From Bacteroidota bacterium (GTDB taxonomy: Bacteria; Bacteroidota; Bacteroidia; AKYH767-A; 2013-40CM-41-45), in assembly GCA_016720935.1 (NCBI GenBank), contig JADKJP010000004.1:203521-267520 (forward strand): 64,000 nt of DNA, read 5' to 3'. This document shows, one piece after another, positions 2,588 through 63,327 of the stretch. Every line of letters begins with the position of its first letter. Position 1 is the first letter of the stretch. The notes under the pieces were generated by a model. The model was given only the letters and a program-made list of their open reading frames with translations. It had not been told where the DNA came from and ran no database searches. The position numbers and the translations under genes are program-made.

Positions 2588-3910
2588 TTAGTAACGGTAA
2601 TGTTCAGATTTGAACGGACCACTTTTCTGTACACCGATATAATTTGCCTGCTCATCTGTAAGCTCATCGATTTCCACGCCGATTTTCTTCAGGTGTAAAC
2701 GTGCAACTTTTTCATCCAGATGTTTAGGAAGTGTGTACACTTTGTTTTCGTATTTGCTGTGGTTCTGCCACAATTCAAGCTGAGCCATTGTCTGGTTGGT
2801 GAATGAATTGGACATTACGAAAGAAGGGTGTCCCATCGCGCAACCCAGATTCACCAGACGTCCTTCTGCAAGAACGATGATGTCTTTGCCATCAATGGTA
2901 TATTTATCCACCTGTGGTTTGATAGTGTCTTTTGACGCGCCGTAGTTTTTGTTCAACCAGGCCATATCGATTTCATTATCGAAGTGACCGATGTTACAAA
3001 CCACCGCGTTGTGCTTCATCGCTTTGAAGTGACGATCTTTGATGATGTTATAGTTTCCGGTTGCAGTCACAATGATGTCTGCTTCCTTCACCGCGTCATC
3101 CATCTTTTTCACTTCATAACCTTCCATCGCCGCCTGCAATGCGCAGATCGGATCGATCTCAGTAACGATTACACGTACTTTAGAATCTTTCAAAGACTCA
3201 GCGGAACCTTTACCAACATCACCAAAGCCTGCAACAACTGCAATCTTTCCGGCCATCATCAGGTCAGTAGCACGACGGATCGCGTCAACCAGTGATTCAC
3301 GGCAACCGTATTTATTATCGAATTTGGATTTGGTAACCGAATCGTTGATATTGATCGCGGGAATCGGAAGTGTTCCGTTCTTCACGCGCTCGTGCAAACG
3401 GTGAACACCGGTTGTCGTTTCTTCAGAAAGTCCTTTGATGTTTTGAACGAGCTCAGGATATTTATCGAGAACCATGTTGGTCAGATCACCACCATCGTCA
3501 AGAATCATGTTCAATGGTTTGCGGTCTTCGCCAAAAAAGAGAGTCTGCTCAATACACCAGTCGAATTCCTCCGCGTTCATACCTTTCCAGGCATACACAG
3601 AAACTCCCGCAGCGGCAATCGCGGCAGCAGCATGGTCCTGAGTAGAGAAAATATTGCAGGAAGACCAGGTCACTTCAGCGCCCAGTTCCACGAGAGTTTC
3701 AATCAGGACAGCAGTCTGGATGGTCATATGCAGACAACCGGCAATACGCGCACCTTTCAAAGGTTTTTGTTTGCCATATTCTTCACGAAGAGACATCAGA
3801 CCCGGCATTTCAGCCTCGGCCAGTTTAATCTCTTTACGGCCCCATTCGGCCAGGGAAATGTCTTTTACCTTGTATTTCACGAATTTGTCAACGCTAGTGG
3901 TGTTTGCCAT
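2588..3910 (-). CDS. ahcY: Adenosylhomocysteinase (S-adenosyl-L-homocysteine hydrolase)
   Basis: Full-length match to the AhcY architecture (NAD-binding GFGDVGKG motif, MANTTS...HYRY). The ORF track start at 3991 adds a 27-aa extension; the start at MANTTS (3910) is preferred. Confidence 0.9.
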
Positions 3911-4056: not shown

Positions 4057-4098
4057 GGGGGGACGAGGGGCGAGGGACGGTGGGACGGTGGGGCGATG
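4057..4098 (+). repeat. G-rich GGGACGR heptamer array (G-quadruplex-prone)
   Basis: ggggggacgaggggcgagggacggtgggacggtggggcga. The same unit family recurs at 16459 and 51645. Confidence 0.8.
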
Positions 4099-4366
4099 TC
4101 ATTATGTCAAAAGTGGGTCTGCCTGTTTACTCGAGAGGATATTACCAAATTTCCAAAAAGGTCTCTGCGAGATGACAAAGCTTTTACTTATCAATATCGT
4201 CCAGATCCCGCCGAACAAGCCTTGGTTCATTTAACCAAATTGGATTGGCGGGATCTGGACGATAAAATCTCATGCTATGCGCTTGTCATCTCGAAGAGAA
4301 CTTTTAGGTCAGTTGAGACTAAATTGGTTTCTTATCTTAAAAACATTGGGGAAAAGGGGCGGGAGT

Positions 4367-4436
4367 TAGTGGAAGTGGAAGTGGAAGTGGAAGTGGAAGT
4401 TTAAAGTGGAAGTGGAAGTGGAAGTTTAAAGTGAAA
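4367..4436 (+). repeat. (GGAAGT)n hexamer array with higher-order structure [(GGAAGT)n TTTAAAGT]x2
   Basis: GGAAGT repeated 5 times, then TTTAAAGT, then GGAAGT 3 times, then TTTAAAGT. It produces the (VE)n tail of the spurious ORF 3928..4404. Confidence 0.85.
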
Positions 4437-4448
4437 GCAAAAATTGGG

Positions 4449-10575: not shown

Positions 10576-10662
10576 TACCATCAAACTGGGGTGCTCCTGA
10601 TCTACGGGGCTGAGATTATACCCATCGAACCTGTTCAGGGTAATGCCTGCGAAGGGAACGAG
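10576..10662 (+). promoter_or_regulatory. TPP (thiamine pyrophosphate) riboswitch, THI-box
   Basis: ACUGGGGUGCUCCUGAUCUACGGGGCUGAGAUUAUACCCAUCGAACCUGUUCAGGGUAAUGCCUGCGAAGGGAAC matches the THI-box consensus (CUGGGGUGC, GCUGAGA, ACCC, GAACCUG, UAAUGCC.GCG.AGGGAA). It is preceded by a TActTTTG -7 promoter motif and is 65 nt upstream of the TonB-dependent receptor ATG. Confidence 0.85.
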
Positions 10663-10727
10663 GTAAACAAATTATGGCGCGTTCACACCCCATGGTGCGT
10701 GCATTGTTCATCCTTAAATAATAAATC

Positions 10728-13151
10728 ATGAAGAAGGTATTTTTTGCAGGCCGGCACTGCCGGAATTTGCTCCTGATCATTTTCGTTTGTCTTCAGGCAA
10801 ATTCATTTGCACAACAAAACATCACCGGAGTTATCCTTGACGATGAAAACAATCAGCCTGTCGCAGGCGCTTCAATTCATATTGAAGGAACTTTCTTCAC
10901 CATTCTGAGCAATGATGAAGGAAAATTTTCTTTTCTGGATTATAAAAAAGGAGAAGCCGATCTGACCATCACGCACATCTCCTATGAAACAAAAAAAATC
11001 CATGTTCTGAGTAAAGATTCACCACAAAGTATTCGCATGAGCGTGAAGAATTATTTATCGGAAGAAGTCACCATCACTGCAACACGCATGGATGGCAGAA
11101 ATGGTTTCGCTTACAGCAATCAGAATAAAGAAGAACTGGAGAAGAAAAATCTAGGACAGGATTTACCCTTCCTGCTGAACATGACCCCTTCGCTTGTTGT
11201 CACTTCCGATGCCGGAAACGGTGTCGGTTATACCGGACTGCGCATCCGTGGAAGCGACGCGAGCAGGATCAATGTGACACTTAACGGAATTCCAGTGAAC
11301 GACCCGGAATCTCACCAGGTGTATTGGGTGGATCTTCCTGACCTTGCTTCTTCAGCGGAAAACATCCAGGTGCAACGCGGTGTGGGAACCTCCACCAATG
11401 GCGCCGGAGCTTTCGGTGGCAGTGTAAATATTCAATCCAGCGCTTTCCAGTCGAAAGCATTCGGACAAGTGAACAGCGCTGTTGGCTCCTTTAATACATG
11501 GAAAAACACCGTCTCCTTTGGAAGCGGATTAATCGACAATAAATTTTCTATCGATGGAAGATTTTCGAAAATAAATTCGGGCGGTTATATCGACCGATCA
11601 AAAAGTGATTTGCATTCGATGTATTTATCGGGCGGATATTATGGAAAGAAAAGTTCGCTGCGCGGACTCATTTTATCCGGTAAAGAAAAAACCTACCAGG
11701 CCTGGTACGGCGTTCCTGAGGATTCTTTGAGTTCAAATCCGAGTTTCAATCCGGCAGGCTTGTATACTGATGCCGCTGGAAATATTTTGTATTACGAAAA
11801 TCAAACCGACAATTATCAGCAGGACTATTACCAGTTGATTCATGCGATTGAACTCAGTCCCTCCCTGCTTTTAAATACAGCTGTTCATTACACAAAAGGA
11901 AAAGGATACTATGAAGAATACAGTGTTGGTGACGCTTTCTCCAAATACGGACTTCCTGATATTTACACTGCAACAGACACCATCAGCAGTTCTGATTTCA
12001 TTCGCAGACGATGGCTCAACAACGATTTCTACGGACTCACTGCCAATCTTCATTATGAGAAAGAAAAATGGAATTTCATTCTCGGACTTTGCGCTAATGA
12101 ATACGATGGAAAACATTTCGGTGAAGTGATTTGGGCAAAAGACGGATCTGTCCCTAATGGAAAACTGGAATACTACAGTGATGACGCTGTTAAAAAAGAA
12201 AGCAGCGGATTCTTAAAACTCGGCGGAACTTTTGCGCATGGAATTTATGTGTATGCAGATCTGCAGTCGCGTTTTGTTTCCTATCAATTTATCGGTTACG
12301 ACAGAGACGGAAAAAATCTTCCTCAAAAAACAAACTCAGCTTTTTTTAATCCGAAAGCCGGAATGTCCTGGCAGATCAATGAAAAACAACAGTTCTGTTT
12401 GTCGGTGGCTGTTGCTCACAAAGAACCGGTTCGTGACGATTATGTGAATTCATCGCCCGATAGTCGTCCGAAAGCGGAAGCACTCACCGATCTTGAAGCT
12501 GGTTACCGTTTTAGTCTGAAGAAATTTTTTCTTTCCGCAAATTTCTATCACATGGCATACACTGACCAGCTGATTCTCACCGGAGAAATCAATGATGTCG
12601 GTGAATACACAAGACAAAATGTCGCCGACAGCTACCGACAAGGAATAGAATTTGAAGGAGGCTGGTCGGTGTCGGAGAAAGTGAAGTTGTCGGCTAATGC
12701 TACATTCAGCAAAAATAAAATCAAACATTTCGAAGAATACATCGACAACTACGACGATTATACGCAGCAAAGAAATGATTACGACAACACAGACATTTCA
12801 TTTTCACCCTCACTCATCAGCGCGGGAATTATCAATTGGACACCGATAAAAAATCTCGAATTTGAATTCACCGGAAAATACATTGGCAAACAATTTCTGG
12901 ACAACACCATGAATGAAAAAAGAAAGCTCGATGCTTATGTTGTCAATGACGCGAGAATTGCCTGGACCATCAAACCAAAAGGCATCAGCGAAATCGGTTT
13001 TACTCTCGCCGTCAACAACCTCTTTGATCAACGCTATTCATCGAACGGTTATACCTATAGTTATATCTACGGCGGAAGCGCTTCTACTTTTAATTACTAT
13101 TTCCCGCAAGCAGGGGTGACGGTGATGTTTGGAATAAAAGCACGAATCTAG
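10728..13151 (+). CDS. TonB-dependent outer-membrane receptor (SusC-like, riboswitch-controlled; probable thiamine uptake)
   Basis: Signal peptide, carboxypeptidase-regulatory-like N-terminal domain, TonB box and plug, 22-strand barrel, C-terminal aromatic residue. A TPP riboswitch lies in its leader. Confidence 0.85.
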   Translation: MKKVFFAGRHCRNLLLIIFVCLQANSFAQQNITGVILDDENNQPVAGASIHIEGTFFTILSNDEGKFSFLDYKKGEADLTITHISYETKKIHVLSKDSPQSIRMSVKNYLSEEVTITATRMDGRNGFAYSNQNKEELEKKNLGQDLPFLLNMTPSLVVTSDAGNGVGYTGLRIRGSDASRINVTLNGIPVNDPESHQVYWVDLPDLASSAENIQVQRGVGTSTNGAGAFGGSVNIQSSAFQSKAFGQVNSAVGSFNTWKNTVSFGSGLIDNKFSIDGRFSKINSGGYIDRSKSDLHSMYLSGGYYGKKSSLRGLILSGKEKTYQAWYGVPEDSLSSNPSFNPAGLYTDAAGNILYYENQTDNYQQDYYQLIHAIELSPSLLLNTAVHYTKGKGYYEEYSVGDAFSKYGLPDIYTATDTISSSDFIRRRWLNNDFYGLTANLHYEKEKWNFILGLCANEYDGKHFGEVIWAKDGSVPNGKLEYYSDDAVKKESSGFLKLGGTFAHGIYVYADLQSRFVSYQFIGYDRDGKNLPQKTNSAFFNPKAGMSWQINEKQQFCLSVAVAHKEPVRDDYVNSSPDSRPKAEALTDLEAGYRFSLKKFFLSANFYHMAYTDQLILTGEINDVGEYTRQNVADSYRQGIEFEGGWSVSEKVKLSANATFSKNKIKHFEEYIDNYDDYTQQRNDYDNTDISFSPSLISAGIINWTPIKNLEFEFTGKYIGKQFLDNTMNEKRKLDAYVVNDARIAWTIKPKGISEIGFTLAVNNLFDQRYSSNGYTYSYIYGGSASTFNYYFPQAGVTVMFGIKARI

Positions 13152-13159
13152 TTTCGGGA

Positions 13160-13208
13160 TATGAGTTATGAGTTGAGAGTTAGAATTATGAATTATGAAT
13201 TATGAGTG
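13160..13208 (+). repeat. (ATGAGTT)n heptamer array
   Basis: atgagtt atgagtt gagagtt agaatt atgaatt atgaatt atgagtg. Starts 9 nt after the receptor stop codon. The same array occurs at 25587. Confidence 0.85.
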
Positions 13209-13217
13209 CCATAATTT

Positions 13218-13313
13218 CTAAGCACTAACCACTAACCTCTAAGCACTAAGCACCAACCACCAAGCACCAAGCACTAACCTCTAAGCACTAAGCACCAACC
13301 ACTAAGCACTAAT
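13218..13313 (+). repeat. (CTAAGCA/CTAACCA/CCAAGCA)n heptamer array, ~13.7 units, perfectly 7-nt periodic
   Basis: ctaagca ctaacca ctaacct ctaagca ctaagca ccaacca ccaagca ccaagca ctaacct ctaagca ctaagca ccaacca ctaagca ctaa. Confidence 0.9.
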
Positions 13314-13920
13314 TCTTACAAGCGCAACTCGGCGACATATAAATCTTCGCTGTCTTCACGACAAGTGAATCGATGCGGGCTTGTTGTTCATCGGAAAAAA
13401 GAATTCCTCTTAGTTCGAGTACTTTCAGATTGCCGAGATTACCAATTTCATCGGGAACATCAGCGAGTTCATTGTCCCAGAGTTCGAGCACTTCCAGACT
13501 TTGCAGTTTACCAATGCTTGCCGGCAATGATTCAAGAACATTGCGGTTGAGTCCGAGGTATTCAAGTTTGATCAGGTTACCGATTTCTTCCGGAAGAGAA
13601 TCCAGTTTGTTGTTAGCCAGATTCAATCGTTTCAATTGTGTAAGCTGTCCGATTTCAGGAGGCAAAGAATGCAACCTGTTTTTGCTCAGATCCAGTTCGC
13701 GGAGGTTTTTGAAAAGCAGAATTTCAGCCGGGAAACTATCGAGTTTTGTTTTGCTCAGGTTCAGGCGAAAAACCTGATCAGGATTTTCTTTAGCCTCTCT
13801 GATGCTACGATAAACATAGGCTGAATCTCTGAAAACCGCATGCGTCTCCTGAGCACTGGAAGTGAATACCGGTGCAAGAAGGTAAAATATGCTCAAAAGG
13901 CAGTTTTTCAGGAAATTCAA
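13309..13920 (-). CDS. Secreted leucine-rich repeat (LRR) protein
   Basis: Signal peptide plus seven consecutive 23-aa LxxLxLxxNxLxxLPxxIGxLxx repeats. Confidence 0.75.
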   Translation of the reverse strand: MNFLKNCLLSIFYLLAPVFTSSAQETHAVFRDSAYVYRSIREAKENPDQVFRLNLSKTKLDSFPAEILLFKNLRELDLSKNRLHSLPPEIGQLTQLKRLNLANNKLDSLPEEIGNLIKLEYLGLNRNVLESLPASIGKLQSLEVLELWDNELADVPDEIGNLGNLKVLELRGILFSDEQQARIDSLVVKTAKIYMSPSCACKN

Positions 13921-16458: not shown

Positions 16459-16680
16459 AGGGGGCGAGGGACGGGTGACGGGGGATGAACGATTAGGCAG
16501 GAGAGAGAAAATATAACAATGAAATGGCCCATTCAAAAATAAACAATACTCAAGAAGTTTTCTCGAAACCTAATAACCTAATAACTCAATAACTCAATAA
16601 CTTAGTAACTTAATAACTCAATAACAAATCGTCCCCCGCCCCTTCTTCATGAACAACCCGGAACTCAGAACTCGAAACCC
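16459..16680 (+). repeat. Composite repeat element: G-rich GGGACGR block, (YYAATAAC)x7 octamer array, inverted C-rich block, (GAACTCR) heptamers
   Basis: 16461 ggggcgagggacg is inverted-complementary (12 of 13) to 16629 cgtcccccgcccc. The octamer array ctaataac x2, tcaataac x2, ttagtaac, ttaataac, tcaataac spans 16569-16626. gaactcagaactcgaaac (16661-78) is the reverse orientation of the GTTCYGA family. Confidence 0.8.
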
Positions 16681-16736: not shown

Positions 16737-18257
16737 ATGCCGCTGATCGGAGCTCTTATTAAACAGGGATTGAAACTGGGTACACGCGTCAAACTGCGTG
16801 ATTATACTCCTATTCAACACCAGCGTAAGGAATTACGTAAACTCATGCGAAAAGCGGAGCATACCGCTTTTGGCAATCATTACGGTTTTAGCAAGATGCT
16901 TGACTCCCGGAATTTTGTCAGGGCATTCCAGAATGACGTTCCGGTTTTCAATTACAACTCTATTTTTCAGAACTGGTGGCATCGTTGTCTGGCCGAAGAA
17001 GAAAATGTCTGCTGGCCGGGACATGTGAATTATTTCGCCCTGAGTTCAGGCACTTCTGAATCCGCAAGCAAACACATTCCTGTCACCAACGACATGGTGA
17101 AATCCTTGCGCAAAGCAAGCATTCGTCAGATTATCACACTCAGCAAATACGATTTACCGGCTTCTTTTTTTGAAAAAGGAATTCTCTGGCTTGGCGGATC
17201 AACACAACTCAACAGACACGGTGGATATTACGAAGGTGATGTGAGCGGAATTTCCGCCCGACGTGTTCCGATCTGGTTTCAGCAATATTACAAACCCGGA
17301 AAAAAAATTTCCAAGGAGAAAGACTGGAATATCAAACTCGAAGAAATTACCAAGCAGGCCGACAAATGGGATATCGGAATTATTACCGGTGTTCCTTCAT
17401 GGGTTCAGCTGCTGATGGAAAAAGTAATCGAACGTTACAAGTTAAAAAGCATCCACGATATTTGGCCCAATCTCCAGGTAGTCGCTCATGGTGGTGTTTC
17501 TTTCGAGCCATACCGCAGAAGCTTTGAGCGTTTCTTTTCCAAACCTGTACACTTCATCGAAATGTATCCTGCTTCGGAAGGCTTCATCGCGTTCCAGGCA
17601 GAACCGGATGTACGTTACATGAAACTCATCCTGAACAACGGACTGTTTTATGAATTCGTTCCTTTCAACGATGAGAACTTCGACGCGAATGGAGAACTAA
17701 AACAAAACCCTCAGGCATTACTGGTGAATGAAGTAAAAGAAGGTGTTGATTACGCCATTCTAATCAGCACCTGCGCCGGAGCATGGAGATATATGATTGG
17801 TGATGTTGTTCGATTTGTCAACAAAGAGAACTGCGAAATCGTCATTAGCGGAAGAACAAAACATTTCCTCAGTCTGGTTGGCGAACATCTCAGTGTCGAT
17901 AACATGAACAAAGCTGTCGAATATGTCGCGGAACAACTCAATGTTGAAATCCCCGAATTCACTGTCGCCGGAATTCCTTACGAAGGATCTTTTGCCCATC
18001 ACTGGTTTCTTGGTGTGAATGGAAATCTGGACAGAGCCCAGGCCAAACTTTTACTCGATAAAAAACTAAAAGAACTGAACGACGATTACGCCGTTGAACG
18101 TGTCTCTGCATTGAAAGAAGTCATTATCGAAACACTTCCTGCAATTAAGTTCTACAACTACATGAGCAACAACGGCAGGCTCGGCGGACAAAACAAATTC
18201 CCCCGCGTACTCAAAGCTTCGCAGTTGGAGGAGTGGAAGCAATATATTGCTGGCTAG
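16737..18257 (+). CDS. GH3-family (auxin-responsive GH3-like) acyl-adenylate-forming enzyme homologue
   Basis: Length and motifs (YALSSGTSE, FIEMYPASEGF) typical of bacterial GH3 auxin-responsive promoter family proteins. Confidence 0.7.
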   Translation: MPLIGALIKQGLKLGTRVKLRDYTPIQHQRKELRKLMRKAEHTAFGNHYGFSKMLDSRNFVRAFQNDVPVFNYNSIFQNWWHRCLAEEENVCWPGHVNYFALSSGTSESASKHIPVTNDMVKSLRKASIRQIITLSKYDLPASFFEKGILWLGGSTQLNRHGGYYEGDVSGISARRVPIWFQQYYKPGKKISKEKDWNIKLEEITKQADKWDIGIITGVPSWVQLLMEKVIERYKLKSIHDIWPNLQVVAHGGVSFEPYRRSFERFFSKPVHFIEMYPASEGFIAFQAEPDVRYMKLILNNGLFYEFVPFNDENFDANGELKQNPQALLVNEVKEGVDYAILISTCAGAWRYMIGDVVRFVNKENCEIVISGRTKHFLSLVGEHLSVDNMNKAVEYVAEQLNVEIPEFTVAGIPYEGSFAHHWFLGVNGNLDRAQAKLLLDKKLKELNDDYAVERVSALKEVIIETLPAIKFYNYMSNNGRLGGQNKFPRVLKASQLEEWKQYIAG

Positions 18258-18292
18258 TTCCGGGTTCCGGGTTCGAAGTTCAAAGTTTGAGC
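18258..18292 (+). repeat. (GTTCYRR)n heptamer array (GTTCCGG x2, GTTCGAA, GTTCAAA, GTTTGAG)
   Basis: Begins at the first nucleotide after the GH3 stop codon and is nearly identical to the array at 59591-59615. Its first 12 nt (gggttccgggtt) form an inverted repeat with 18343-18354 (aacccggaaccc). Confidence 0.85.
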
Positions 18293-18307
18293 AGATCTCA
18301 ATTCTCC

Positions 18308-18360
18308 CAACCACTAAGCACTAACCACTAACCACTAACCACAAACCCGGAACCCAAAAA
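18308..18360 (+). repeat. (CCACTAA/CTAAGCA)n CA-rich heptamer array ending at the lysE-family ATG
   Basis: ccaacca ctaagca ctaacca ctaacca ctaacca caaaccc ggaaccc aaaaa|ATG. Confidence 0.85.
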
Positions 18361-20865: not shown

Positions 20866-20920
20866 TGAGTGGAAGAGTAAGTGTAAGTGCAAGTGCAAGT
20901 CTCAAGTTTGGGTGTTTAAA
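20866..20920 (+). repeat. (AAGTGCA/GTGGAAG)-type heptamer array
   Basis: gatgagt ggaagag taagtgt aagtgca agtgcaa gtctcaa gtttggg tgtttaa. Confidence 0.7.
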
Positions 20921-20947
20921 GAAATGAAAGATTTTCAATCCAAAGGG

Positions 20948-20990
20948 TACCAAAAACCAACAACCAAAAACTAATAACCAATAAAAAAAG
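20948..20990 (+). repeat. (ACCAAMA)n heptamer array abutting the tRNA-Val(GAC) 3' end
   Basis: accaaaa accaaca accaaaa actaata accaata aaaaaag, immediately followed by the tRNA at 20991. Confidence 0.8.
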
Positions 20991-22653: not shown

Positions 22654-22710
22654 CTTGGTACCTGGCACCTTGTACCATGTAATTAGTACAAGGTACCAGG
22701 ATTATTGTTA
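22654..22710 (+). repeat. Palindromic (YNGGTAC)n heptamer array forming a 15-bp-stem hairpin
   Basis: ttggtac ctggcac cttgtac catgtaa ttagtac aaggtac cagg; cctggcaccttgtac is inverted with gtacaaggtaccagg (one mismatch). Confidence 0.75.
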
Positions 22711-22750: not shown

Positions 22751-22816
22751 CTAAGCACCAAGCACCAAGCACCAAGCATCAACACCTAACACCTAACAAC
22801 TAACAACTAACAACCA
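22751..22816 (+). repeat. (CTAAGCA/CCAAGCA/CTAACAA)n heptamer array ending 6 nt before the coaD ATG
   Basis: ctaagca ccaagca ccaagca ccaagca tcaacac ctaacac ctaacaa ctaacaa ctaacaa ccactcc. Confidence 0.9.
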
Positions 22817-22822
22817 CTCCGA

Positions 22823-23287
22823 ATGTCATCAAAAAAAATCGCAGTATTCCCGGGATCATTTGATCCAATCACGAAAGGGCACGAAAGCATTGTGAGCCGT
22901 TGTCTGGATTTATTTGATGAAATCGTTATCGGTATTGGTTACAATTCAAACAAACATTATTATTTCTCACAGGACAGACGGGAACATTTTATTAAAAAGA
23001 CTTTTGAAAATCAAAGCAAGGTCAGGGTTGAAAGATACAGCGGACTCACTGTTGAGTTTTGCAAACAGATTGGCGCGCAGTACATCCTGCGTGGACTGCG
23101 TACATCAGCAGACTTTGAATTCGAGCGTGCGATTGCACAGATGAACAGGGCCATGATTCCGGAAGTAGAAACTATTTTTATTGTATCCGATCCTGCATTG
23201 TCACATATCTCCTCCACGATCGTCCGTGACATCCTGCTCTACCAGGGAGATGTTTCCAAATTTGTTCCGGTTGCCGTTACAGTTTAA
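22823..23287 (+). CDS. coaD: Pantetheine-phosphate adenylyltransferase
   Basis: AVFPGSFDPITKGHE nucleotidyltransferase motif; length 154 aa. Confidence 0.9.
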   Translation: MSSKKIAVFPGSFDPITKGHESIVSRCLDLFDEIVIGIGYNSNKHYYFSQDRREHFIKKTFENQSKVRVERYSGLTVEFCKQIGAQYILRGLRTSADFEFERAIAQMNRAMIPEVETIFIVSDPALSHISSTIVRDILLYQGDVSKFVPVAVTV

Positions 23288-25588: not shown

Positions 25589-25632
25589 TGAGTTATGAGT
25601 TTTGAATTATGAATTATGAGTTATGAGTTATT
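25587..25632 (+). repeat. (ATGAGTT/ATGAATT)n heptamer array overlapping the pyrE stop codon
   Basis: gtgagtt atgagtt ttgaatt atgaatt atgagtt atgagtt att. Confidence 0.85.
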
Positions 25633-25793
25633 TTGCTTCTGGTTCACCGTTATTTAATTTTAATTGAATAAAATAGCTAACCTAAAAAACCTAGAGCACT
25701 CAGAAATTACCCTTCACTAAACACCAGAGTCCAGACTATTACTTTCGCAAATCACAGACACCACACACGCACTTCACAAACACTCCCTCAACA

Positions 25794-26189
25794 ATGACTC
25801 GTATCGAAAGTGACAAAGTAGTTGTAAAAAAAACACAGGCTGAGATTTATAATTTCCTGAGCAACTTCAACAATTTCCAGAAACTGATGCCTGAACAGGT
25901 AACGAACTGGCAATCGACAGAAGAAGAATGCAGTTTCACCATCGCGGGAATGGCCAGTCTTGGAATGAAAATTATTGAAAAGACACCGAATAGTCAGATA
26001 AAAGTTACAAGAAACGGAAAAGCTCCTTTTGATTTTAATCTCGACTGCGCCATCAAAGATCTTTCTGACAATTGCGAAGTACAACTTGCATTCGATGCTG
26101 ATCTGAATCCGATGCTGAAAATGATGGCAGTCAAACCACTCACGAACTTTTTAAATCTCCTCGTACACAAACTCAACGAATTGCCATAA
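25794..26189 (+). CDS. SRPBCC (START/Bet v1-like) ligand-binding domain protein
   Basis: 131-aa protein with the cyclase/dehydrase-like pattern (EIYNFLSNFNNFQKLMPEQV). Confidence 0.45.
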   Translation: MTRIESDKVVVKKTQAEIYNFLSNFNNFQKLMPEQVTNWQSTEEECSFTIAGMASLGMKIIEKTPNSQIKVTRNGKAPFDFNLDCAIKDLSDNCEVQLAFDADLNPMLKMMAVKPLTNFLNLLVHKLNELP

Positions 26190-42686: not shown

Positions 42687-43196
42687 TTATTTTCGTGTAT
42701 ATGAAATATGCCATAACGATTTCCAGTTGAGTCGGTCAGTAGAGCTCTGCCAGTCCCACTCAAAACTGTCTTTTTTTATCGAAAAGAATATCATACGTCT
42801 GTAATTCTTCTGTCCGTTTTTTGTCACAGTTTCATCTCCTTCAAAAATCACCGTATCGCCTTCTTTTCTCCCGGTGAACACGAGATAAGCTCCCGCATTA
42901 TCCACCCAGGTTTGTCTCCATTTCGATGTTGTCGAATCAAACATGCTCCAGCTTTTACCAATAAAGGTTCCATCACTGTAGTGAAAATTTTCTTCAATCA
43001 CTTTGTTGTCAAGAATCCGGGAAATATGATTTGTCGCCTGAACGGAATCACCCCAGACACAATTCCAGTCACCCAGCCAGAAATCCATGAGGTCTTTTTG
43101 CATGGCTGGTATTTCAGCTTTTGTCATGATGCAAAGAAGCAGGGAGAGGAGGGTGAGTGTGAGTGTGAGTGTGAGTGTGCGTGTGAGTGTGGGCAT
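42687..43196 (-). CDS. Hypothetical protein; N-terminus encoded by a hexanucleotide repeat gives (TL)n
   Basis: M1 reading gives MPTLTRTLTLTLTLTLLSLLLCIMTKAEI.... The alternative start at MTKAEI would lack a signal peptide. The start lies 6 nt downstream of the stop of the beta-helix gene. Confidence 0.5.
   Translation of the reverse strand: MPTLTRTLTLTLTLTLLSLLLCIMTKAEIPAMQKDLMDFWLGDWNCVWGDSVQATNHISRILDNKVIEENFHYSDGTFIGKSWSMFDSTTSKWRQTWVDNAGAYLVFTGRKEGDTVIFEGDETVTKNGQKNYRRMIFFSIKKDSFEWDWQSSTDRLNWKSLWHISYTRK
43150..43193. repeat. (GTGAGT)n hexanucleotide microsatellite (ACACTC on the coding strand)
   Basis: ggtgagtgtgagtgtgagtgtgagtgtgcgtgtgagtgtggg: six-plus units, in frame, at the 5' end of the 42687..43196 gene. 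Confidence 0.85.
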
Positions 43197-46174: not shown

Positions 46175-46249
46175 GGGAGCTTAGCTCAGCTGGTTCAGAG
46201 CATCTGCCTTACAAGCAGAGGGTCACAGGTTCGAACCCTGTAGCTCCCA
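46175..46249 (+). tRNA. tRNA-Val (anticodon UAC)
   Basis: GGGAGCTTAGCTCAGCTGGTTCAGAGCATCTGCCTTACAAGCAGAGGGTCACAGGTTCGAACCCTGTAGCTCCCA forms a canonical cloverleaf with anticodon loop CTTACAA. A rho-independent terminator hairpin AAAGCCCACC-ATAA-GGTGGGTTTT follows. Confidence 0.9.
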
Positions 46250-46520
46250 CTTCAAACAAAGCCCACCATAAGGTGGGTTTTGTCGTTTTAAGTAAATTCA
46301 TTTTGTTCACCATCATAAAAGCAACAACAGAGCATCCCGGTTTATAACCGGGAGGGTCACAGGTTCGAACCCTGTAGCTCCCACTTCAAACAAAGCCCAC
46401 CACTTGGTGGGTTTTGTCGTTTTAAGTAAATTCATTTTGTTCACCATCATAAAAGCAACAACAGAGCATCCCGGTTTATAACCGGGAGGGTCACAGGTTC
46501 GAACCCTGTAGCTCCCACTT
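46250..46520 (+). repeat. Tandem ~120-bp units, each carrying a tRNA-Val 3'-half fragment (altered anticodon arm) plus terminator hairpin plus spacer
   Basis: Units at about 46329-46448 and 46464-46520 repeat AGAGCATCCCGGTTTATAACCGGGAGGGTCACAGGTTCGAACCCTGTAGCTCCCAC and the terminator. A 14-bp 5' fragment (gggagcttagctca) lies at 46141-46154. Confidence 0.85.
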
Positions 46521-46637
46521 CAAAACAAAACATTTATCCTTGTAAAAATACACCGCTCATATTATCTTTTAGACCCTGATCAATTTAATTGTGTCCAGAC
46601 GAAAAATAAGGGACAAAACCGAAAAGAGTAGCAGCCC

Positions 46638-51212: not shown

Positions 51213-51614
51213 TTATTGCTTGGAGGATTGAGTGGCCAGCACCATTTTAATTTTTAAACGATTCCCGATATCGAGAAGGTCAACGAGGTTTTGAACCTGA
51301 ACCGATTTGTCAACCTTCAACAAAGCTGTCGGATCGGTTTGTCCTGCTATATTCACTTTAATGGCCGCTTCCAGTTCGTCCGCGCTGATGGGAGTATTGT
51401 TAATCGCATATTGCAAATCGGCAGTAACTGAAATGGTGAGCGGGTGCTTCACAGATTGCGTGCTGCTCTTGGCGTTAGGAAGCAAGAGCTTCAACACGTT
51501 CGGTGTCGCCATCGTAGACGTGATGAGGAAGAACAACAACAGAAAAAACATGATGTCATTCAGGGAAGCGCTGTACACTTCACCAACTACTCGTGTTCTT
51601 CTTCGGAGATTCAT
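51213..51614 (-). CDS. exbD: Biopolymer transport protein ExbD/TolR
   Basis: 133 aa, single N-terminal TM, ExbD-family periplasmic domain. Confidence 0.8.
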   Translation of the reverse strand: MNLRRRTRVVGEVYSASLNDIMFFLLLFFLITSTMATPNVLKLLLPNAKSSTQSVKHPLTISVTADLQYAINNTPISADELEAAIKVNIAGQTDPTALLKVDKSVQVQNLVDLLDIGNRLKIKMVLATQSSKQ

Positions 51615-51644: not shown

Positions 51645-51695
51645 GGGGACGAGGGACGGTGAAAAGGGGACGAGGGACGGGGGGCGAGGGACGTT
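51645..51695 (+). repeat. G-rich (GGGACGR)n array inside the exbB-exbD intercistronic spacer
   Basis: gggacgagggacggtgaaaaggggacgagggacggggggcgagggacg. Confidence 0.85.
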
Positions 51696-51729
51696 AAATT
51701 AGTGTGTCACACATTCAAATTTCCTTCCC

Positions 51730-51765
51730 GCACCAACCACTAAGCACCAACCACCAGGCACTAGT
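51730..51765 (+). repeat. (CCAACCA/CTAAGCA)-type heptamer array abutting the exbB stop codon
   Basis: caccaaccactaagcaccaaccaccaggcactag; the CA-rich strand is antisense to the exb operon here. Confidence 0.8.
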
Positions 51766-57588: not shown

Positions 57589-57921
57589 TCAGGAATTAAT
57601 CCAATTTTGGATTTTGCTTGTGACGTTCAGAATCCCGTTTTGATTTTTTTCAAGATTTTTCTGAAATGCGGCGGTCAGATCTACGCCGGTTTGATTGGCC
57701 AGACAGATCAACACAAACAATACATCAGCAAGTTCATCGCCCAGATCTTTTCCAAGATCCGATTCTTTTGAAGATTGCTCACCGTATTTCCTGGCAATAA
57801 TTCGGGCTACCTCTCCTACTTCTTCGGTAAGCATAGCCATATTGGTGAGCTCATTAAAATAACGAACGCCATGAGTTTTGATCCACTGGTCTACTTGGGC
57901 TTGTGCTTCGGTGAGGTCCAT
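57589..57921 (-). CDS. MazG-like nucleotide pyrophosphohydrolase (single-domain)
   Basis: EExGExxE motif region (LTEEVGEVARIIARKYGEQS..., DELADVLFVLICLAN). Confidence 0.7.
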   Translation of the reverse strand: MDLTEAQAQVDQWIKTHGVRYFNELTNMAMLTEEVGEVARIIARKYGEQSSKESDLGKDLGDELADVLFVLICLANQTGVDLTAAFQKNLEKNQNGILNVTSKIQNWINS

Positions 57922-57976
57922 GTTAGTTGTTAGTTTTTAGTGGTTGGTGCTTAGTGGTTGGTGCTTGGTGCTTAGA
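57922..57976 (-). repeat. (CTAAGCA/CCAACCA/CTAACAA)n heptamer array (sense to mazG) ending at its ATG
   Basis: On the minus strand: tctaagca ccaagca ccaacca ctaagca ccaacca ctaaaaa ctaacaa ctaac|ATG. Confidence 0.85.
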
Positions 57977-57991
57977 ATGCATTGTAAACTT

Positions 57992-58020
57992 GCTGACTCA
58001 AGACTCCGAACTCCAGACTT
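57992..58020 (-). repeat. (GAGTTCN/GAGTCTT) heptamer block, GTTC-family module upstream of the CA-rich module
   Basis: On the minus strand: aagtctg gagttcg gagtctt gagtca. Confidence 0.65.
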
Positions 58021-58552: not shown

Positions 58553-59473
58553 TTATCTGAAAATATCCTGGTTACTCAGAATACTGAGATAACTATCGTA
58601 CCGGCTGTATGCGATTTCGCCCCGTTCCACTGCCGGTTTAACGGCACAATCCTTTTCAGTGGTGTGCAAACAGTTATTGAATTTACAACCTTTCCCAACA
58701 GCAAAAATATCAGGGAAGAAGTGTGACACTTCATACTTGTCAAAATCAATAGTACCGAATTCACGAATTCCGGGAGTATCGATTAGGAAACCTCCTTCAG
58801 GCAGCGCATGCATCTCTGCAAATGTGGTTGTATGCGTTCCTTTCATGTGCTGAGATGAAAGCGTAGAGGTTTTCAAACCGAGTCCGGGAATAAGCGCGTT
58901 AATCAAGGAGGACTTCCCTACTCCGCTATGTCCGGAAAACAGATTCACTTTCCCCTTGAGTTCGTCCTTCAAAGCATGCAAACCAAAACCCGACAATCCA
59001 GAAACTGCAAGTACTTTATAACCAATTCCCTCGTAGAGATTTTTCAGCTCATTCACAAAATCCCAGACATCATCATCGTAAATGTCTGCTTTGTTCCAGA
59101 GTATTCCGGCCGGAACACTATGAGCCTCCGCTGTTGCCAGAAACCTGTCAATAAAACCAAGTGACGTTTTCGGAAGAACAGGAGTCGCCACAACCCAGGC
59201 GCGATCTACGTTGGCAGCAATGATCTGAACCTGTTTGGATAGTTTGACAGACTTCCGGATGATGTAATTCTTACGATCGAAAACACGAATAATATGGCCG
59301 ACTTCATGCGCTGAATCCCATTCCACCTCAACCTTGTCGCCAACTGTTACCGGGTTAGTTGCCTCAAAATCCTTTAAACGTAAATTTCCACGAATCCTGC
59401 AGGTCAGATTCTTACCATCCTCCAGTCTTACCGTGTATAAAGAACCCGTTGATTTTATCACTATCCCATGCAT
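58553..59473 (-). CDS. rsgA: Ribosome small-subunit biogenesis GTPase RsgA
   Basis: OB-fold N-terminus (MHGIVIKSTGSLYTVR), circularly permuted GTPase motifs (NKADI...SGHSGVGKSS), C-terminal zinc-finger CxxC...C. The ORF-track start at 59596 is an artefact of read-through into the GTTCYGA repeat. Confidence 0.85.
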   Translation of the reverse strand: MHGIVIKSTGSLYTVRLEDGKNLTCRIRGNLRLKDFEATNPVTVGDKVEVEWDSAHEVGHIIRVFDRKNYIIRKSVKLSKQVQIIAANVDRAWVVATPVLPKTSLGFIDRFLATAEAHSVPAGILWNKADIYDDDVWDFVNELKNLYEGIGYKVLAVSGLSGFGLHALKDELKGKVNLFSGHSGVGKSSLINALIPGLGLKTSTLSSQHMKGTHTTTFAEMHALPEGGFLIDTPGIREFGTIDFDKYEVSHFFPDIFAVGKGCKFNNCLHTTEKDCAVKPAVERGEIAYSRYDSYLSILSNQDIFR

Positions 59474-59540
59474 GGCACGAAAGTAAAAAAAGCAAGTGGA
59501 GAATTCACCTGAATTTCGTGAGAAATAACTTAGATTTGCG

Positions 59541-59636
59541 CTTCTCGGGTTCTGAGTTCTGAGTTCTGAGTTCCGAGTTCTGAGTTCCGAGTTCAAGGTT
59601 CGAAGTTCAATGTTTGAATTGTTCGAGGATCGAGGT
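59541..59636 (+). repeat. (GTTCTGA/GTTCCGA/GTTCGAA/GTTCAAT)n heptamer array, ~13 units
   Basis: ttctcgg gttctga gttctga gttctga gttccga gttctga gttccga gttcaag gttcgaa gttcaat gtttgaa ...; the 3' part is nearly identical to 18272-18292. Confidence 0.9.
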
Positions 59637-59667
59637 TAATGAATGCTAGAAGTATCAGGTAAAAATT

Positions 59668-59718
59668 CTAAGCACTAAGCACTAACCACCAAGCACTAAC
59701 CACCAAGCACCAAGCACC
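59668..59718 (+). repeat. (CTAAGCA/CTAACCA/CCAAGCA)n heptamer array ending at the gldA-like ATG
   Basis: ctaagca ctaagca ctaacca ccaagca ctaacca ccaagca ccaagca ccaaaaa aa|ATG. Confidence 0.9.
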
Positions 59719-59725
59719 AAAAAAA

Positions 59726-60646
59726 ATGAGTGTAAAAGTCAGTTCGATCACTAAAATGTATGGAAGTCAGAAGGCGCTGGATGAAGTGACATTTAGCGTT
59801 GATGGCGGTCAGGTTGTGGGGTTTCTTGGTCCAAATGGGGCGGGGAAATCAACGATGATGAAGATTATCACCTGCTTCATTCCTCAGACTTCCGGCAAAG
59901 TGGATGTTTGCGGATATGATGTGACGGAACAAAGCCTGGAAGTGAGAAAACTGGTAGGATATTTGCCTGAGCACAACCCGCTTTACCTTGAAATGTACGT
60001 CAAGGAATACCTCGAGTTCATCGCAGGATTGCATCACCTCGCCGGAACCAAGAAAGCGAGGATCTCTGAAATGATTGAAATCACCGGATTGCAAATAGAA
60101 CAGAATAAAAAAATCGGAGCCTTGTCAAAAGGCTACCGGCAGCGCGTTGGCCTGGCTCAGGCCATGATTCACGATCCGAAAGTGCTTATTCTCGATGAAC
60201 CAACCTCCGGTCTGGATCCAAACCAATTGTCTGAAATCCGTGCATTGATAAAATCCATCGGAAAAGAAAAAACCGTGATTCTTTCGACGCATATCATGCA
60301 GGAAGTTGAGGCGATTTGCGACAGAGTCATCATCATCAACAAAGGAAAAATAGTTGCAGATGAAAATACCGAGTTATTGCGAAAGTCCTCTACCGGTGAT
60401 GATATTATCATGGTAGAGTTTGATAATCCCTGTTCTTCCAAACAACTTTTACAGATTGAAGGTGTTGTCAGAGCAGAAGCATTGAATGGAAACAACTGGA
60501 AACTTGTTTCCGATGGCAAAACAGATATCCGCAGTCATGTTTTTCAATTTGCTGTTCAGAATAATCTCACAGTATTGTCAATGCAAAAGCAGGAGCAGAA
60601 ACTCGAAGATATTTTCCATCAGCTGACGCAGAAAAAAAATTCCTGA
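59726..60646 (+). CDS. gldA: ABC transporter ATP-binding protein, GldA-like (gliding motility-associated)
   Basis: Walker A GPNGAGKST, ABC signature LSKGYRQR, Walker B ILDEPTSGLD, ~300 aa with C-terminal extension as in Flavobacterium GldA. gldA symbol is tentative. Confidence 0.65.
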   Translation: MSVKVSSITKMYGSQKALDEVTFSVDGGQVVGFLGPNGAGKSTMMKIITCFIPQTSGKVDVCGYDVTEQSLEVRKLVGYLPEHNPLYLEMYVKEYLEFIAGLHHLAGTKKARISEMIEITGLQIEQNKKIGALSKGYRQRVGLAQAMIHDPKVLILDEPTSGLDPNQLSEIRALIKSIGKEKTVILSTHIMQEVEAICDRVIIINKGKIVADENTELLRKSSTGDDIIMVEFDNPCSSKQLLQIEGVVRAEALNGNNWKLVSDGKTDIRSHVFQFAVQNNLTVLSMQKQEQKLEDIFHQLTQKKNS

Positions 60647-61771: not shown

Positions 61772-62019
61772 TTCCCCTGCTTTTGGGTATTTTTTCCTCT
61801 TGAATTCAATGTATTTTAGAGTCTCCTGCGACTCCTGAATCAAAGTAATTTCTTACTTTTGCAGCCGAGTGGAAAGATTTGATTAGCTGCCTGTATCAGT
61901 AGCAATATTGCAACCACGGTAAAAAATGCTAAAGCTGGACTAAAGCTTTTGCACCCGCGATCAAACCCTCCCGATTCCTTGTTTTACAAAAATAGTCTTT
62001 AAAAAACCTACAGAGAACC

Positions 62020-63327
62020 ATGTCTTATTTGTTCACCTCAGAATCCGTTTCCGAAGGGCATCCCGACAAAGTAGCGGACCAGATTTCAGATGCATTGATT
62101 GATTATTTCCTGGCCTATGATCCCAAGTCAAAAGTGGCTTGTGAAACACTTGTTACTACCGGACAGGTTGTCCTTGCAGGGGAAGTAAAATCGGAGGCTT
62201 ACCTCGATGTTCAGGATATCGCACGTGATGTAATCCGTAAAATCGGTTACACCAAAAGCGAATATATGTTCGAGGCCAACTCCTGCGGAATTTTCAGCGC
62301 GATTCACGAACAATCACCGGATATCAACCAGGGTGTAGATAAAAAGGATCCATGGAAACAAGGTGCCGGTGATCAGGGTATGATGTTCGGTTATGCCAGC
62401 AAAGAAACGGATACCTACATGCCTTTGCCACTGGAACTCGCACACCTTTTGTTGCGTGAACTTGCTGCTATCCGCAAAGAAGGCAAGACAATGACTTACC
62501 TCCGTCCGGATGCTAAGTCACAGGTGACGATCGAATACGGCGACGACAATCAACCTATCCGTATTGACACGATTGTGATTTCCACACAACATGACGATTT
62601 CGAAAAGGATGCCGCTATGTTGAAGAAAATTAAAGAAGATGTTATCAATATCCTCGTGCCACGTGTGATGAAAAAATTACCAAAACGTGTGCAGGCATTG
62701 TTCAATGATAAAATCAAATACCATGTGAATCCGACCGGTAAATTTGTGATCGGTGGACCACACGGTGATACAGGACTTACAGGACGTAAAATTATCGTGG
62801 ATACATACGGTGGAAAAGGTGCTCACGGTGGTGGTGCATTCTCCGGCAAAGATCCGTCAAAAGTGGACCGTTCCGCGGCATATGCCACACGTCACATTGC
62901 CAAAAACATGGTTGCAGCAGGTTTGTGCGACGAAGTACTTGTACAGGTTGCTTATGCTATCGGTGTCGCTGAGCCTGTTGGATTGTATGTAAATACTTAT
63001 GGTACTGCTAAAGTTCAAATGAACGACGGAGAAATTGCTCAAAAGATTCGCAAGATTTTTGACATGCGCCCTTACGCGATTGAACAGCGTTTTAATCTTC
63101 GTACCCCAATTTATCTTGAGACTGCAGCATATGGTCACATGGGCCGCGAAACCAAGGTGGTGGAAAAAATCTTCAACAAAGGGAAGAAGAATGAGAAACG
63201 TATCAAGGTTAAATTATTCCCTTGGGAAGAACTTAACTACGTAACTCGTTTGAAAGATCTTTTCGTTACAGAAAAAAAGAGCGCCAAGAAAACCAACGCG
63301 AAACAAGCGCAGCTTGAAATGGTATAA
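62020..63327 (+). CDS. metK: S-adenosylmethionine synthetase (methionine adenosyltransferase)
   Basis: [20 protein letters not shown] motifs; includes a ~30-aa Lys-rich C-terminal tail. Confidence 0.95.

Follow-up and report, generated by a model that had tools for sequence, protein, structure and literature searches.

Hypervariable heptanucleotide repeat arrays upstream of a gldA-like gene in an uncultured Bacteroidia lineage

What is the repeat-built element that lies between the divergent genes rsgA and gldA in the genome of an uncultured member of the Bacteroidia, and might it matter for the expression of its neighbours? The locus belongs to a 64,000-nt stretch of contig JADKJP010000004.1 (assembly GCA_016720935.1), which we analysed in full and refer to as the window. 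An initial annotation, made from the sequence alone, had described here a conserved bipartite unit, an array of GTTCTGA-like heptamers followed by an array of CTAAGCA-like heptamers, that ends at the start codons of three unrelated genes. We find that the arrays are heptanucleotide simple-sequence repeats (SSRs), real and not attributable to chance. The interpretation we favour, as probable though by no means secure, is that the element is a hypermutable SSR pair, generated by slippage and filtered for orientation, in which the C/A-rich array keeps the gldA initiation region single-stranded.

Heptamer arrays in and around the rsgA-gldA spacer

Arrays were detected with Tandem Repeats Finder and by direct reading of the sequence, and compared with dinucleotide shuffles in 500-nt blocks. 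The window contains 13 merged arrays of period 6-8 with at least three copies, against none in each of 20 shuffles; ten of the 13 have period 7, and the heptamer arrays run to 5-14 copies each. Head-to-tail units of 5-11 nt, typically 7, at a frequency above chance, place them among the long SSRs (LSSRs). At the focal site the element does sit where it had been placed, in the spacer of two Pfam-supported divergent genes:

58553-59473, minus strand: rsgA GTPase gene, divergent from gldA (Pfam RsgA_N, RsgA_GTPase)
59474-59548, plus strand: rsgA-proximal, non-repetitive part of the divergent spacer, identical in 7 of 7 strains
59531-59538, plus strand: candidate gldA -7 box TAGATTTG, the only perfect TAnnTTTG in the spacer
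59549-59641, plus strand: G/T-type heptamer array (GTTCTGA, GTTCCGA, GTTCAAG, GTTCGAA and others), about nine clear units and a degenerate tail
59642-59667, plus strand: non-repetitive 26-nt spacer between the arrays, with point differences between strains
59668-59725, plus strand: C/A-type array (period 7, 7.3 copies by Tandem Repeats Finder), then CCAAAAAAAA, reaching the gldA ATG at 59726
59726-60646, plus strand: gldA-like ABC transporter ATPase gene (Pfam ABC_tran)

Tandem Repeats Finder calls the G/T-type array at 59549-59614 (period 7, 6.6-9 copies), and degenerate units extend it to about 59641; read on the minus strand, it is a C/A-type form facing rsgA. The C/A array consists of seven units at 59668-59716, namely CTAAGCA twice, CTAACCA, CCAAGCA, CTAACCA and CCAAGCA twice. 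No Rfam family matches 59400-59800, even at E<=1, no sigma-70 promoter was found in the spacer, and the search for an intrinsic terminator there returned a single weak minus-strand hit (59511-59493) at chance level.

Arrays had also been claimed for the genes encoding a LysE-family exporter, a MazG-like protein and CoaD, the last with the second module only. Sequence reading and Tandem Repeats Finder bear out all four sites, and the C-type array of coaD indeed stands alone:

18257-18291, plus strand: LysE G-type array (GTTCCGG twice, GTTCGAA, GTTCAAA, GTTTGAG; sequence and Tandem Repeats Finder)
18307-18360, plus strand: LysE C/A-type region (CCAACCA, CTAAGCA, CTAACCA three times, then AACCCGGAACCC and AAAAA), with the array at 18307-18345 and the ATG at 18361
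57992-58018, minus strand: short mazG G-type segment (GTCTGGA GTTCGGA GTCTTGA GTCAGC), invariant in 7 strains
57922-57975, minus strand: mazG C/A-type array (Tandem Repeats Finder), ending at the ATG at 57921, invariant in 7 strains
22751-22815, plus strand: coaD C/A-type array only (CTAAGCA, CCAAGCA three times, AACACCT/AACAACT units), 8 nt before the ATG at 22823

The first base of the LysE G-type array is at once the final one of the preceding GH3 gene's stop codon, and the spacer may be intercistronic; AACCCGGAACCC, next to the LysE start, is the complement of the GTTCCGG units. At mazG the C/A units run, in order, CTAAGCA, CCAAGCA, CCAACCA, CTAAGCA, CCAACCA, CTAAAAA, CTAACAA and CTAAC. 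A near-perfect palindrome (ggcaccttgtaccatgtaattagtacaaggtacc, 22660-22697), a hairpin without a T-run, lies immediately behind a methyltransferase gene and ahead of the coaD leader in all strains.

These sites are only a subset of a class that is genome-wide and, as shown below, phylum-wide: when every window spacer of at least 50 nt was read, 11 or more of them proved to contain arrays, not just those of the three genes originally singled out. Tandem Repeats Finder and spacer reading place the further arrays at 4060-4092, 4368-4437, 13160-13312, 16460-16678, 20868-20981, 25589-25631, 25752-25784, 43149-43191 and 51645-51760, including:

4060-4437, minus strand: ahcY upstream spacer, with TCCACT hexamers (4437-4368) and CGTCCCA/CGTCCCT units (4092-4060)
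13160-13207, plus strand: G-type array (seven TATGAGT/TATGAAT units), 8 nt after the stop of a TonB-dependent receptor gene
13217-13312, plus strand: longest CTAAGCA/CTAACCA/CCAACCA array (13.6 units, 96 nt; Tandem Repeats Finder), between convergent genes
16460-16678, plus strand: composite spacer upstream of the GH3 gene, invariant among 6 strains (fold z -0.5, not significant)
16460-16485, plus strand: G-rich GGGGCGA/GGGACGG units of the GH3 spacer
16567-16625, plus strand: AACTCAAT 8-mer array of the GH3 spacer
16629-16642, plus strand: C-rich TCGTCCCCCGCCCC of the GH3 spacer
16660-16678, plus strand: GGAACTCAGAACTCGAAAC of the GH3 spacer, the C-type form of the GTTCTGA family
20868-20981, minus strand: array pair between tRNA-Val and a pirin gene, TTTTGGT-type (20981-20949) then CTTGCA/CTTACA hexamers (20900-20868)
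25589-25631, plus strand: G-type array of six TGAGTTA units (Tandem Repeats Finder), the first TGA being the stop codon of a phosphoribosyltransferase gene
51645-51693, minus strand: C-type array (CGTCCCT/CGTCCCC; GGGACGA-type on the plus strand), 31 nt upstream of the exbD ATG at 51614
51730-51760, minus strand: CTAAGCA family, reversed in orientation (minus-strand reading TGCCTGGTGGTTGGTGCTTAGTGGTTGGTGC), immediately behind the exbB stop codon

The same few unit families come up repeatedly, each of them in both orientations: CTAAGCA/CTAACCA/CCAAGCA, GTTCTGA/GTTCCGG, GGGACGA/GGGGCGA, AGTGGA/AGTGCA hexamers, and TGAGTTA/TATGAGT with a related 8-mer, TAACTCAA. The position of the array at 51730-51760, after the exbB stop, means that the CTAAGCA family is not tied to start codons, contrary to what had been proposed. 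The 96-nt array at 13217-13312 precedes no start codon either, because the genes on its two sides are convergent, the minus-strand open reading frame (ORF) at 13309-13920 being a real leucine-rich repeat (LRR) gene by its Pfam LRR hits; on the minus strand this array is a G-type TGCTTAG array directly after the LRR gene stop.

Could such a recurring family be a regulon tag, where heptamers bind a trans-acting factor (S1 or a cold-shock protein) or complementary G-type arrays and thereby place their genes under common post-transcriptional control? The CTAAGCA/CTAACCA/CCAAGCA family stands before at least four unrelated genes within 64 kb, its exact complement occurs in the 3' regions of exbB and the LRR gene, and MacGregor has proposed S1, Csp or CsrA binding for the TAACTGA repeats of other bacteria (PMC4679880). 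However, the units are degenerate and vary between strains, different lineages use unrelated units, the tagged genes lack functional coherence and the binding factor is hypothetical, so that we consider a tag quite unlikely.

A different idea starts from the similarity of two G-type tails, which the initial annotation took as the mark of a copied unit as opposed to simple sequence. The similarity itself holds up (18 of 21 positions, 17 of 21 in other strains), albeit at 18271-18291 and 59598-59618 and not, as originally given, at 18272-18292 and 59591-59611; the conclusion does not, as both 21-mers fall in the decaying tails of one unit family and their sequence is strain-variable. A mobile element, a bipartite unit resembling MITEs (miniature inverted-repeat transposable elements) or REPINs and copied between spacers, would fit this match, the breaking of short-read contigs at arrays, and one locus in a Flavobacteriales metagenome-assembled genome (MAG; L074), where two copies of a ~100-nt conserved core (2700-2950 and 3300-3530), each ending at a start codon, are flanked by inverted heptamer arrays (GATTCTC/GATTCGG ... 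TCGAGAA) in a MITE-like form of paired arrays. That form was seen only in L074, however. No shared sequence was found among the inter-array spacers of different sites in the window, the focal element has neither terminal inverted repeats nor target-site duplications, and array length and unit order differ at every locus. We give mobility next to no credence.

Variation among strains and orientation relative to genes

An identical GldA is encoded on six other contigs, including one of MAG GCA_016721635.1, and across these 7 strains the rsgA-gldA spacer measures 250, 252, 271, 278, 285 or 292 nt. Its flanks align without any difference; both arrays differ by whole heptamers and in unit types, the C/A array ranging from 7 to 10 units. 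Similarly, the coaD spacer measures 173, 175, 180, 194, 208 or 222 nt in 9 strains, with CTAAGCA units gained or lost and CTAAGCA and CCAAGCA replacing one another. The LysE spacer spans 103-113 nt, with substituted units in its G-type array, and the TGAGTTA array at 25589 varies by +/-7 nt. Short, impure arrays (mazG, GH3) are invariant among strains, which is typical SSR behaviour. The comparison of upstream regions that the initial annotation had suggested therefore reveals, among strains, gldA and coaD arrays that vary in 7-nt steps. Whole-unit copy-number change between close relatives is the signature of LSSR slippage, and whole-unit length variation between identical flanks marks the arrays as slippage-prone simple-sequence repeats, so that "conserved" is the wrong word for what is the most variable part of the locus. 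They provide a clean population-level demonstration of arrays as the fastest-changing part of otherwise identical loci. The same spacers still carry arrays in L094, a strain that has clearly diverged.

Short-read contigs often end inside arrays, 50-116 nt before the LysE or coaD start (L094-L096, L105, L106), and in MAG GCA_016721635.1 two contigs, JADKHU010000007.1 and JADKHU010000011.1, contain the coaD region, with differing array content (L097 versus L098). Together, contig ends and duplicate coaD regions suggest that the assembly broke at these points and that the bin mixes several strains. In practical terms, short-read assemblies break at the arrays, which could be used to tell strains of this activated-sludge lineage apart.

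Copy-number polymorphism of this kind, in natural populations and in arrays that probably lie in a 5' untranslated region (5'UTR), brings to mind a contingency locus, in which the number of units switches or grades gldA expression by phase variation, as for the heptamers of Haemophilus hmw1A (PMC12721329). Yet the arrays lie downstream of a candidate -7 box or after stop codons, not within coding sequence or between promoter elements; the genes concerned (coaD, mazG, rsgA/gldA, exbD) are housekeeping genes and not surface antigens; and many arrays occupy 3' regions. With Rehm et al. equally negative on this point (PMC4692102), we regard phase variation as highly improbable.

To see beyond the window, we scanned species-representative genomes for GldA and obtained 80 other Bacteroidota loci, the closest at 71% GldA identity. 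Arrays of period 6-8 occur in 28 of the 80, and period 7 accounts for 62 of about 114 arrays. Unit sequences change from lineage to lineage; even the nearest representatives, at 71% identity, have different arrays, or none detectable, in the same rsgA-gldA spacer. Arrays are strongly biased towards non-coding sequence (75 in 208 kb, compared with 19 in 1163 kb of coding sequence, a difference of ~20-fold). They are also oriented. Within 40 nt upstream of start codons, C exceeds G on the sense strand in 19 arrays and G exceeds C in 5, while within 40 nt after stop codons G exceeds C in 22 and C exceeds G in 6; array-free spacers exhibit a weak G deficit before starts and roughly equal G and C after stops. 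Where two arrays are adjacent, a G-type array is followed by a C-type array 14 times and the reverse is seen once (p=0.001); in the window the count is 3 to 0. The order claimed at the outset, G/T-type then C/A-type on the sense strand, is hence real and non-random. The rule is that G-type arrays follow stops or lie distally, C-type arrays lie next to starts, and G then C is almost never reversed. A pair ordered in this way reads the same on both strands, so that its C-type array faces any start codon, and its G-type array any stop codon, on either side. The sole window pair to depart from the order is that of ahcY, where both arrays are C-type. A keto/amino skew (G+T versus A+C) was considered as the general rule and rejected, since it holds 4 to 0 in the window but only 8 to 6 in the other Bacteroidota; the general orientation variable is G versus C.

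Is this pattern compatible with functionless DNA? One might imagine neutral or selfish repeats, produced by slippage and building up where they cause little damage, that add nothing to expression, with the orientation rule reflecting only the removal of harmful orientations near starts, be they arrays rich in G, arrays containing AUG or arrays prone to structure. The arrays are highly polymorphic between strains with identical genes, the genes beside them are functionally unrelated (GldA, MazG, LysE, CoaD, ExbD, pirin, LRR protein), unit sequences are lineage-specific, most genes have no array, and earlier studies likewise found no functional pattern (PMC4679880, PMC4692102). However, removal near starts fails to predict the G-type excess after stops (22 versus 6, where background G and C are about equal). 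Nor would one expect arrays to be kept at the same spacers in the diverged strain L094, or differing arrays to fill the gldA leader across many lineages. We judge the neutral account to be somewhat unlikely, but one to be taken seriously.

A metagenome scan with three CTAAGCA-type units returned at least 120 contigs with a GC content of 0.30-0.74, and a viral scan nine contigs (L107-L235); either database size or real recurrence across phyla could underlie these matches. Among the matches listed, 107 arrays had sufficient flanking sequence to be examined, controls included, for a partner, defined as at least 16 of 21 matches to a TGCTTAG-like array. Such a partner lies within 130 nt upstream of 26 of the 107 and downstream of none, in agreement with the orientation rule, and shuffles yielded none; an earlier periodicity detector (11 of 116) was too strict and was replaced by this match count. 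About 20 CTAAGCA arrays, again among the matches listed, end 5-23 nt before an ATG that opens an ORF. One contig of 68% GC (L112) has GAGTTCC, AGTGCCT and CTAAGCA arrays side by side, all from families that the window also contains.

Leader placement, RNA structure and translation initiation

Are the gldA arrays transcribed? On the gldA strand, TAGATTTG precedes the ATG by 187 nt, ahead of both arrays and inside the segment identical in all strains. The same octamer occurs 10-21 nt before the ORFs at 1297 and 21194, and in spacers the Bacteroidetes -7 box, TAnnTTTG, is found a short way ahead of ORFs and right in front of both riboswitches of the window. Four relatives (L007, L010, L013, L014) have TTAGCTTTG ('...aaaaagaaTTAGCTTTGta') at the same place next to rsgA, with their own, different arrays between it and the gldA ATG. 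Given the place of this box, the only perfect one in the spacer, ahead of the two arrays, and its counterpart in relatives, both arrays would be transcribed as part of a ~180-nt 5'UTR. As proposed earlier, the C/A arrays very probably belong to 5'UTRs, with motif-based support at gldA; the spacers of LysE, mazG and coaD contain only near-matches to the box. A promoter inside the G-type tail (AATGTTTG, ~59608) was rejected, as TTTG is absent there in strains L002 and L003.

On the rsgA strand, a motif, TTACTTTCG, ends 4 nt before the rsgA ATG (59474-59490, minus strand), and TTTCG variants also precede the GH3 gene, coaD and the gene at 25794. If TTACTTTCG were a -7 box of variant sequence, the rsgA transcript would have no leader, or next to none.

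What might an array do in a leader? In Flavobacterium johnsoniae, mRNA structure and an A at -3 tune initiation, start regions avoid AUG, and Shine-Dalgarno pairing is not used (PMC6847099). The arrays would lie in the leaders of a phylum whose ribosomes ignore Shine-Dalgarno sites and in which the lack of leader structure is the main known means of influencing initiation. The mean predicted probability of being unpaired between -25 and +10 is 0.70 for the six array genes in the window compared with 0.51 for 51 others (Mann-Whitney p=9e-4). Five of the six range from 0.67 to 0.83, with a G content of 0.03-0.07 between -40 and -1; gldA stands at 0.67 (G 0.07, C 0.40, A 0.50) and mazG at 0.73. 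An A-run precedes the ATG at gldA, LysE, mazG and exbD, and C-type units contain no ATG. In silico, then, these leaders have the profile of unstructured, Shine-Dalgarno-independent ones (G-poor, unpaired, A at -3, no upstream AUG). The suggestion that they are unstructured is borne out at the level of prediction and fits Shine-Dalgarno-independent initiation in the Bacteroidia (PMC6847099). From these folding models we infer that the C/A array keeps the initiation region open, and a function of the arrays in leaders, conceivably in setting translation efficiency, is plausible.

Alternatively, the two arrays might act together, as arms of a long RNA or DNA hairpin serving as a terminator, an insulator or a 5'UTR stem processed by RNase III. 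A 7-nt register would allow such arms to pair at any copy number, and several lineages do have paired arrays that are exact reverse complements (L061, L074, L054, L032, L053, L057, L011). The L061 pair, which follows the gldA stop codon and has a T-run behind it, shows the full set of hairpin features in prediction (folding z -5.6). At LysE, GUUCCGGGUUCC (18262-18273) pairs with 18344-18355, outer arms that enclose the C/A array (z -3.8), so that some features of a terminator-like hairpin are present there. The complementary upstream partners of 26 of the 107 metagenomic CTAAGCA arrays, among the matches listed, point the same way, as does the 5'UTR hairpin of hmw (ATCTTTC)n, which sets expression (PMC12721329). 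At the focal site, however, cis-pairing can be dismissed: GTTCTGA and the CTAAGCA complement agree at no more than 5 of 7 positions, and the region folds less well than its shuffles (z +1.35). The arrays are likewise non-complementary at mazG (z +1.09), 13152-13312 (z +1.31), exbB-exbD (z +0.09) and in the GH3 spacer (z -0.5), the first two again folding less well than shuffles and the last two unremarkably, none of them better. Complementary arms, a stable stem and a U-run are not found together at gldA, mazG or 13152-13312, and no T-run follows the second arm at gldA. As an account of the focal element, a hairpin is unlikely.

We therefore return to a slippage-generated pair with an open gldA leader, for which the following course of events can be envisaged. 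The long-SSR class, dominated by 7-nt units, would have colonised many untranslated spacers of this uncultured Bacteroidia genome, where replication slippage makes arrays grow, shrink and swap unit variants in 7-nt steps. Selection would then filter orientation, so that the mRNA strand is G-poor and C/A-rich beside start codons, with the G-containing complement at sites after stop codons or distal in the leader. Transcription of gldA would start just downstream of the TAGATTTG box at 59531-59538, placing both arrays in its ~180-nt 5'UTR. With no G-runs, no AUG, no pairing partner and an A-run at its end, the start-proximal CTAAGCA/CCAAGCA array would leave the initiation region single-stranded, the main known determinant for Shine-Dalgarno-blind Bacteroidia ribosomes. 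A change in copy number would alter leader length and might modulate expression modestly, without acting as an on/off switch.

Several observations speak against this interpretation. TAnnTTTG is not enriched across the window (52 found, 52 expected), and the promoter call depends on an 8-nt motif. The difference in accessibility is a computed one, concerns six genes and is in part a trivial result of G-poor composition. LysE is an exception (probability of being unpaired 0.45), as its outer GTTCCGG/CCGGAAC arms pair. Most genes in the window have short, array-free leaders, so arrays are not needed for translation. Finally, a role in leaders leaves unaccounted for the preference of G-type arrays for sites after stop codons, the recurrence of one unit family at six or more loci, and the 96-nt CTAAGCA array between convergent genes.

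A bolder scenario treats G- and C-type heptad arrays as a genome-wide post-transcriptional code, in which C-type leaders are addressed by complementary G-type arrays or by a heptad-reading protein. The (CUAAGCA)n leaders of gldA, mazG, coaD and lysE could be addressed in cis or in trans, with G-type partners such as those in the 3' regions of exbB (51760-51730) and the LRR gene (13312-13217). The 7-nt periodicity would let pairing or binding survive changes in copy number, and the near-universal G-then-C order, which extends from Bacteroidota to contigs of 30-74% GC, would be the mark of a common co-transcriptional constraint, perhaps that the C-rich arm is never left naked for Rho. We regard such a code as a long shot.

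Relation to known repeats and further features of the window

Oriented heptamer arrays at gene ends are known from cyanobacteria, Xanthomonas, Beggiatoaceae and a few Bacteroidetes. The kind of element is therefore not new; new here are an uncultured Bacteroidia lineage, units incapable of forming quadruplexes, and focal arms that do not pair. Among the closest are the TAACTGA repeats of MacGregor (2015), which in Beggiatoaceae, cyanobacteria and five Bacteroidetes stand forward-oriented immediately ahead of start codons (PMC4679880). They, too, are tandem, intergenic 7-nt units, mostly forward and a few nt from start codons without a Shine-Dalgarno site; one reverse-oriented set directly follows a stop codon, other heptamers fill the same spacers in Gramella, Aequorivita and Elizabethkingia, relatives lack arrays at the same spacer, and the downstream genes are functionally unrelated (PMC4679880). 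Three units of the window, CTAACCA, CTAAGCA and TAACTCAA, resemble TAACTGA. The unit sequences themselves differ, however, and several families combine here into G-type/C-type pairs. Copy-number polymorphism between strains is documented here, whereas the Beggiatoa genome has only one 'indirect' repeat (PMC4679880).

Rehm et al. (2015) described G-rich heptamers with no identified function, GGGAATC in Xanthomonas and GGGGA(T/C)T in Nostoc (PMC4692102). Their G-rich strand is the sense strand within 50 bp after stops and the antisense strand within 50 bp before ORFs, the same orientation rule as here, and they form 'convergent' inverted pairs, 70-75 per genome, comparable to the G-then-C pairs seen here (PMC4692102). 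About 90% are intergenic; they are transcribed, vary in length and sequence between close relatives and adjoin random classes of genes (PMC4692102). The GGGACGA/GGGGCGA arrays of the window (at 4060, 16460 and 51645) resemble this type. Those at 4060-4092, 16460-16485 and 51645-51693 (GGGACGA, GGGGCGA or GGGACGG units) have at least four G-runs each, antisense upstream of ahcY and exbD and sense well after the isocitrate dehydrogenase stop, and by sequence would qualify as quadruplex-capable, like the Xanthomonas/Nostoc class (PMC4692102). The focal GTTCTGA and CTAAGCA units, on the other hand, have no G-runs and hence do not reach four runs of at least three G; they form no quadruplexes, the gldA arms are non-complementary, and the phylum is a different one, which makes no use of Shine-Dalgarno sites. 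That the orientation rule holds for quadruplex-incapable units weakens quadruplexes as its explanation.

Mazel et al. (1990) reportedly described cyanobacterial short tandemly repeated repetitive (STRR) heptamers, a comparable class of repeat. The prokaryotic long SSRs of Mrazek et al. (2007), as relayed in PMC4679880, are alike in having units of 5-11 nt, most commonly 7, in non-coding location, with a sporadic phylogenetic spread and polymerase slippage as their proposed origin. These LSSR and STRR surveys are not known to describe either a paired G-then-C arrangement or a relation to Bacteroidia leaders.

In the hmw1A leader of Haemophilus influenzae, an (ATCTTTC)n repeat forms a hairpin together with a G-rich region and undergoes cleavage by RNase III, as shown by Rapun-Araiz et al. 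(2025; PMC12721329). There, as here, a heptamer SSR in a transcribed 5'UTR is combined with a second region of opposite G/C character, and copy number varies in the population; the order of the two regions is, however, opposite to that seen here (PMC12721329). Moreover, expression of hmw1A, a surface adhesin gene, declines with increasing repeat number, whereas the genes considered here are housekeeping genes and no stable gldA hairpin is predicted.

As an analogy for mechanism only, without any sequence relationship, one may cite CA/CAA-rich translational enhancers such as the omega leader of tobacco mosaic virus, which by its G-poor, C/A-rich, repeat-built and unstructured character directly before a start codon would be comparable to the C/A arrays. 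Reportedly, this leader is functional in E. coli even though it has no Shine-Dalgarno site (Gallie and Kado 1989; Tzareva et al. 1994), and leaders of such a make-up would favour ribosome loading independent of these sites.

Rfam families elsewhere in the window are restricted to tRNAs, a TPP riboswitch and a SAM-II riboswitch. The TPP riboswitch (10577-10674) precedes the TonB-dependent receptor gene at 10728-13151, and the SAM-II long-loop riboswitch (61863-61942) precedes metK (62020-63327); a TACTTTTG -7 box lies immediately before each, at 10568 and 61854. In the unusually long (457-nt) spacer upstream of ahcY, at 4196-4263 (ahcY sense is the minus strand), two arms of 17 bp (atcgtccagatcccgcc ... 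ggcgggatctggacgat) make up a perfect inverted repeat around a 34-nt loop, which matches no Rfam family and could be an unrecognised leader structure of this S-adenosylhomocysteine hydrolase gene. The (GAGTGT)7 hexamer array at 43149-43191 overlaps the first codons of a minus-strand ORF without a Pfam match (42687-43196): if the ATG at 43196 is the true start, the array would encode MPTLTRTLTLTLTLTL..., and otherwise it would be a C-type leader (ACACTC) for a start further downstream. Lastly, behind tRNA-Val(TAC) at 46175-46250 a 134-nt unit is repeated in tandem, in 2.3 copies that are 97% identical (46175-46529 in all). Each unit comprises a hairpin (aaagcccaccacaaggtgggttttg), a spacer and a copy of the 3' part of the tRNA (GAGGGTCACAGGTTCGAACCCTGTAGCTCCCACTTCA), and the repeats look as if attachment-site scars had accumulated, or a tandem duplication had arisen, at a tRNA that is a hotspot of integration.

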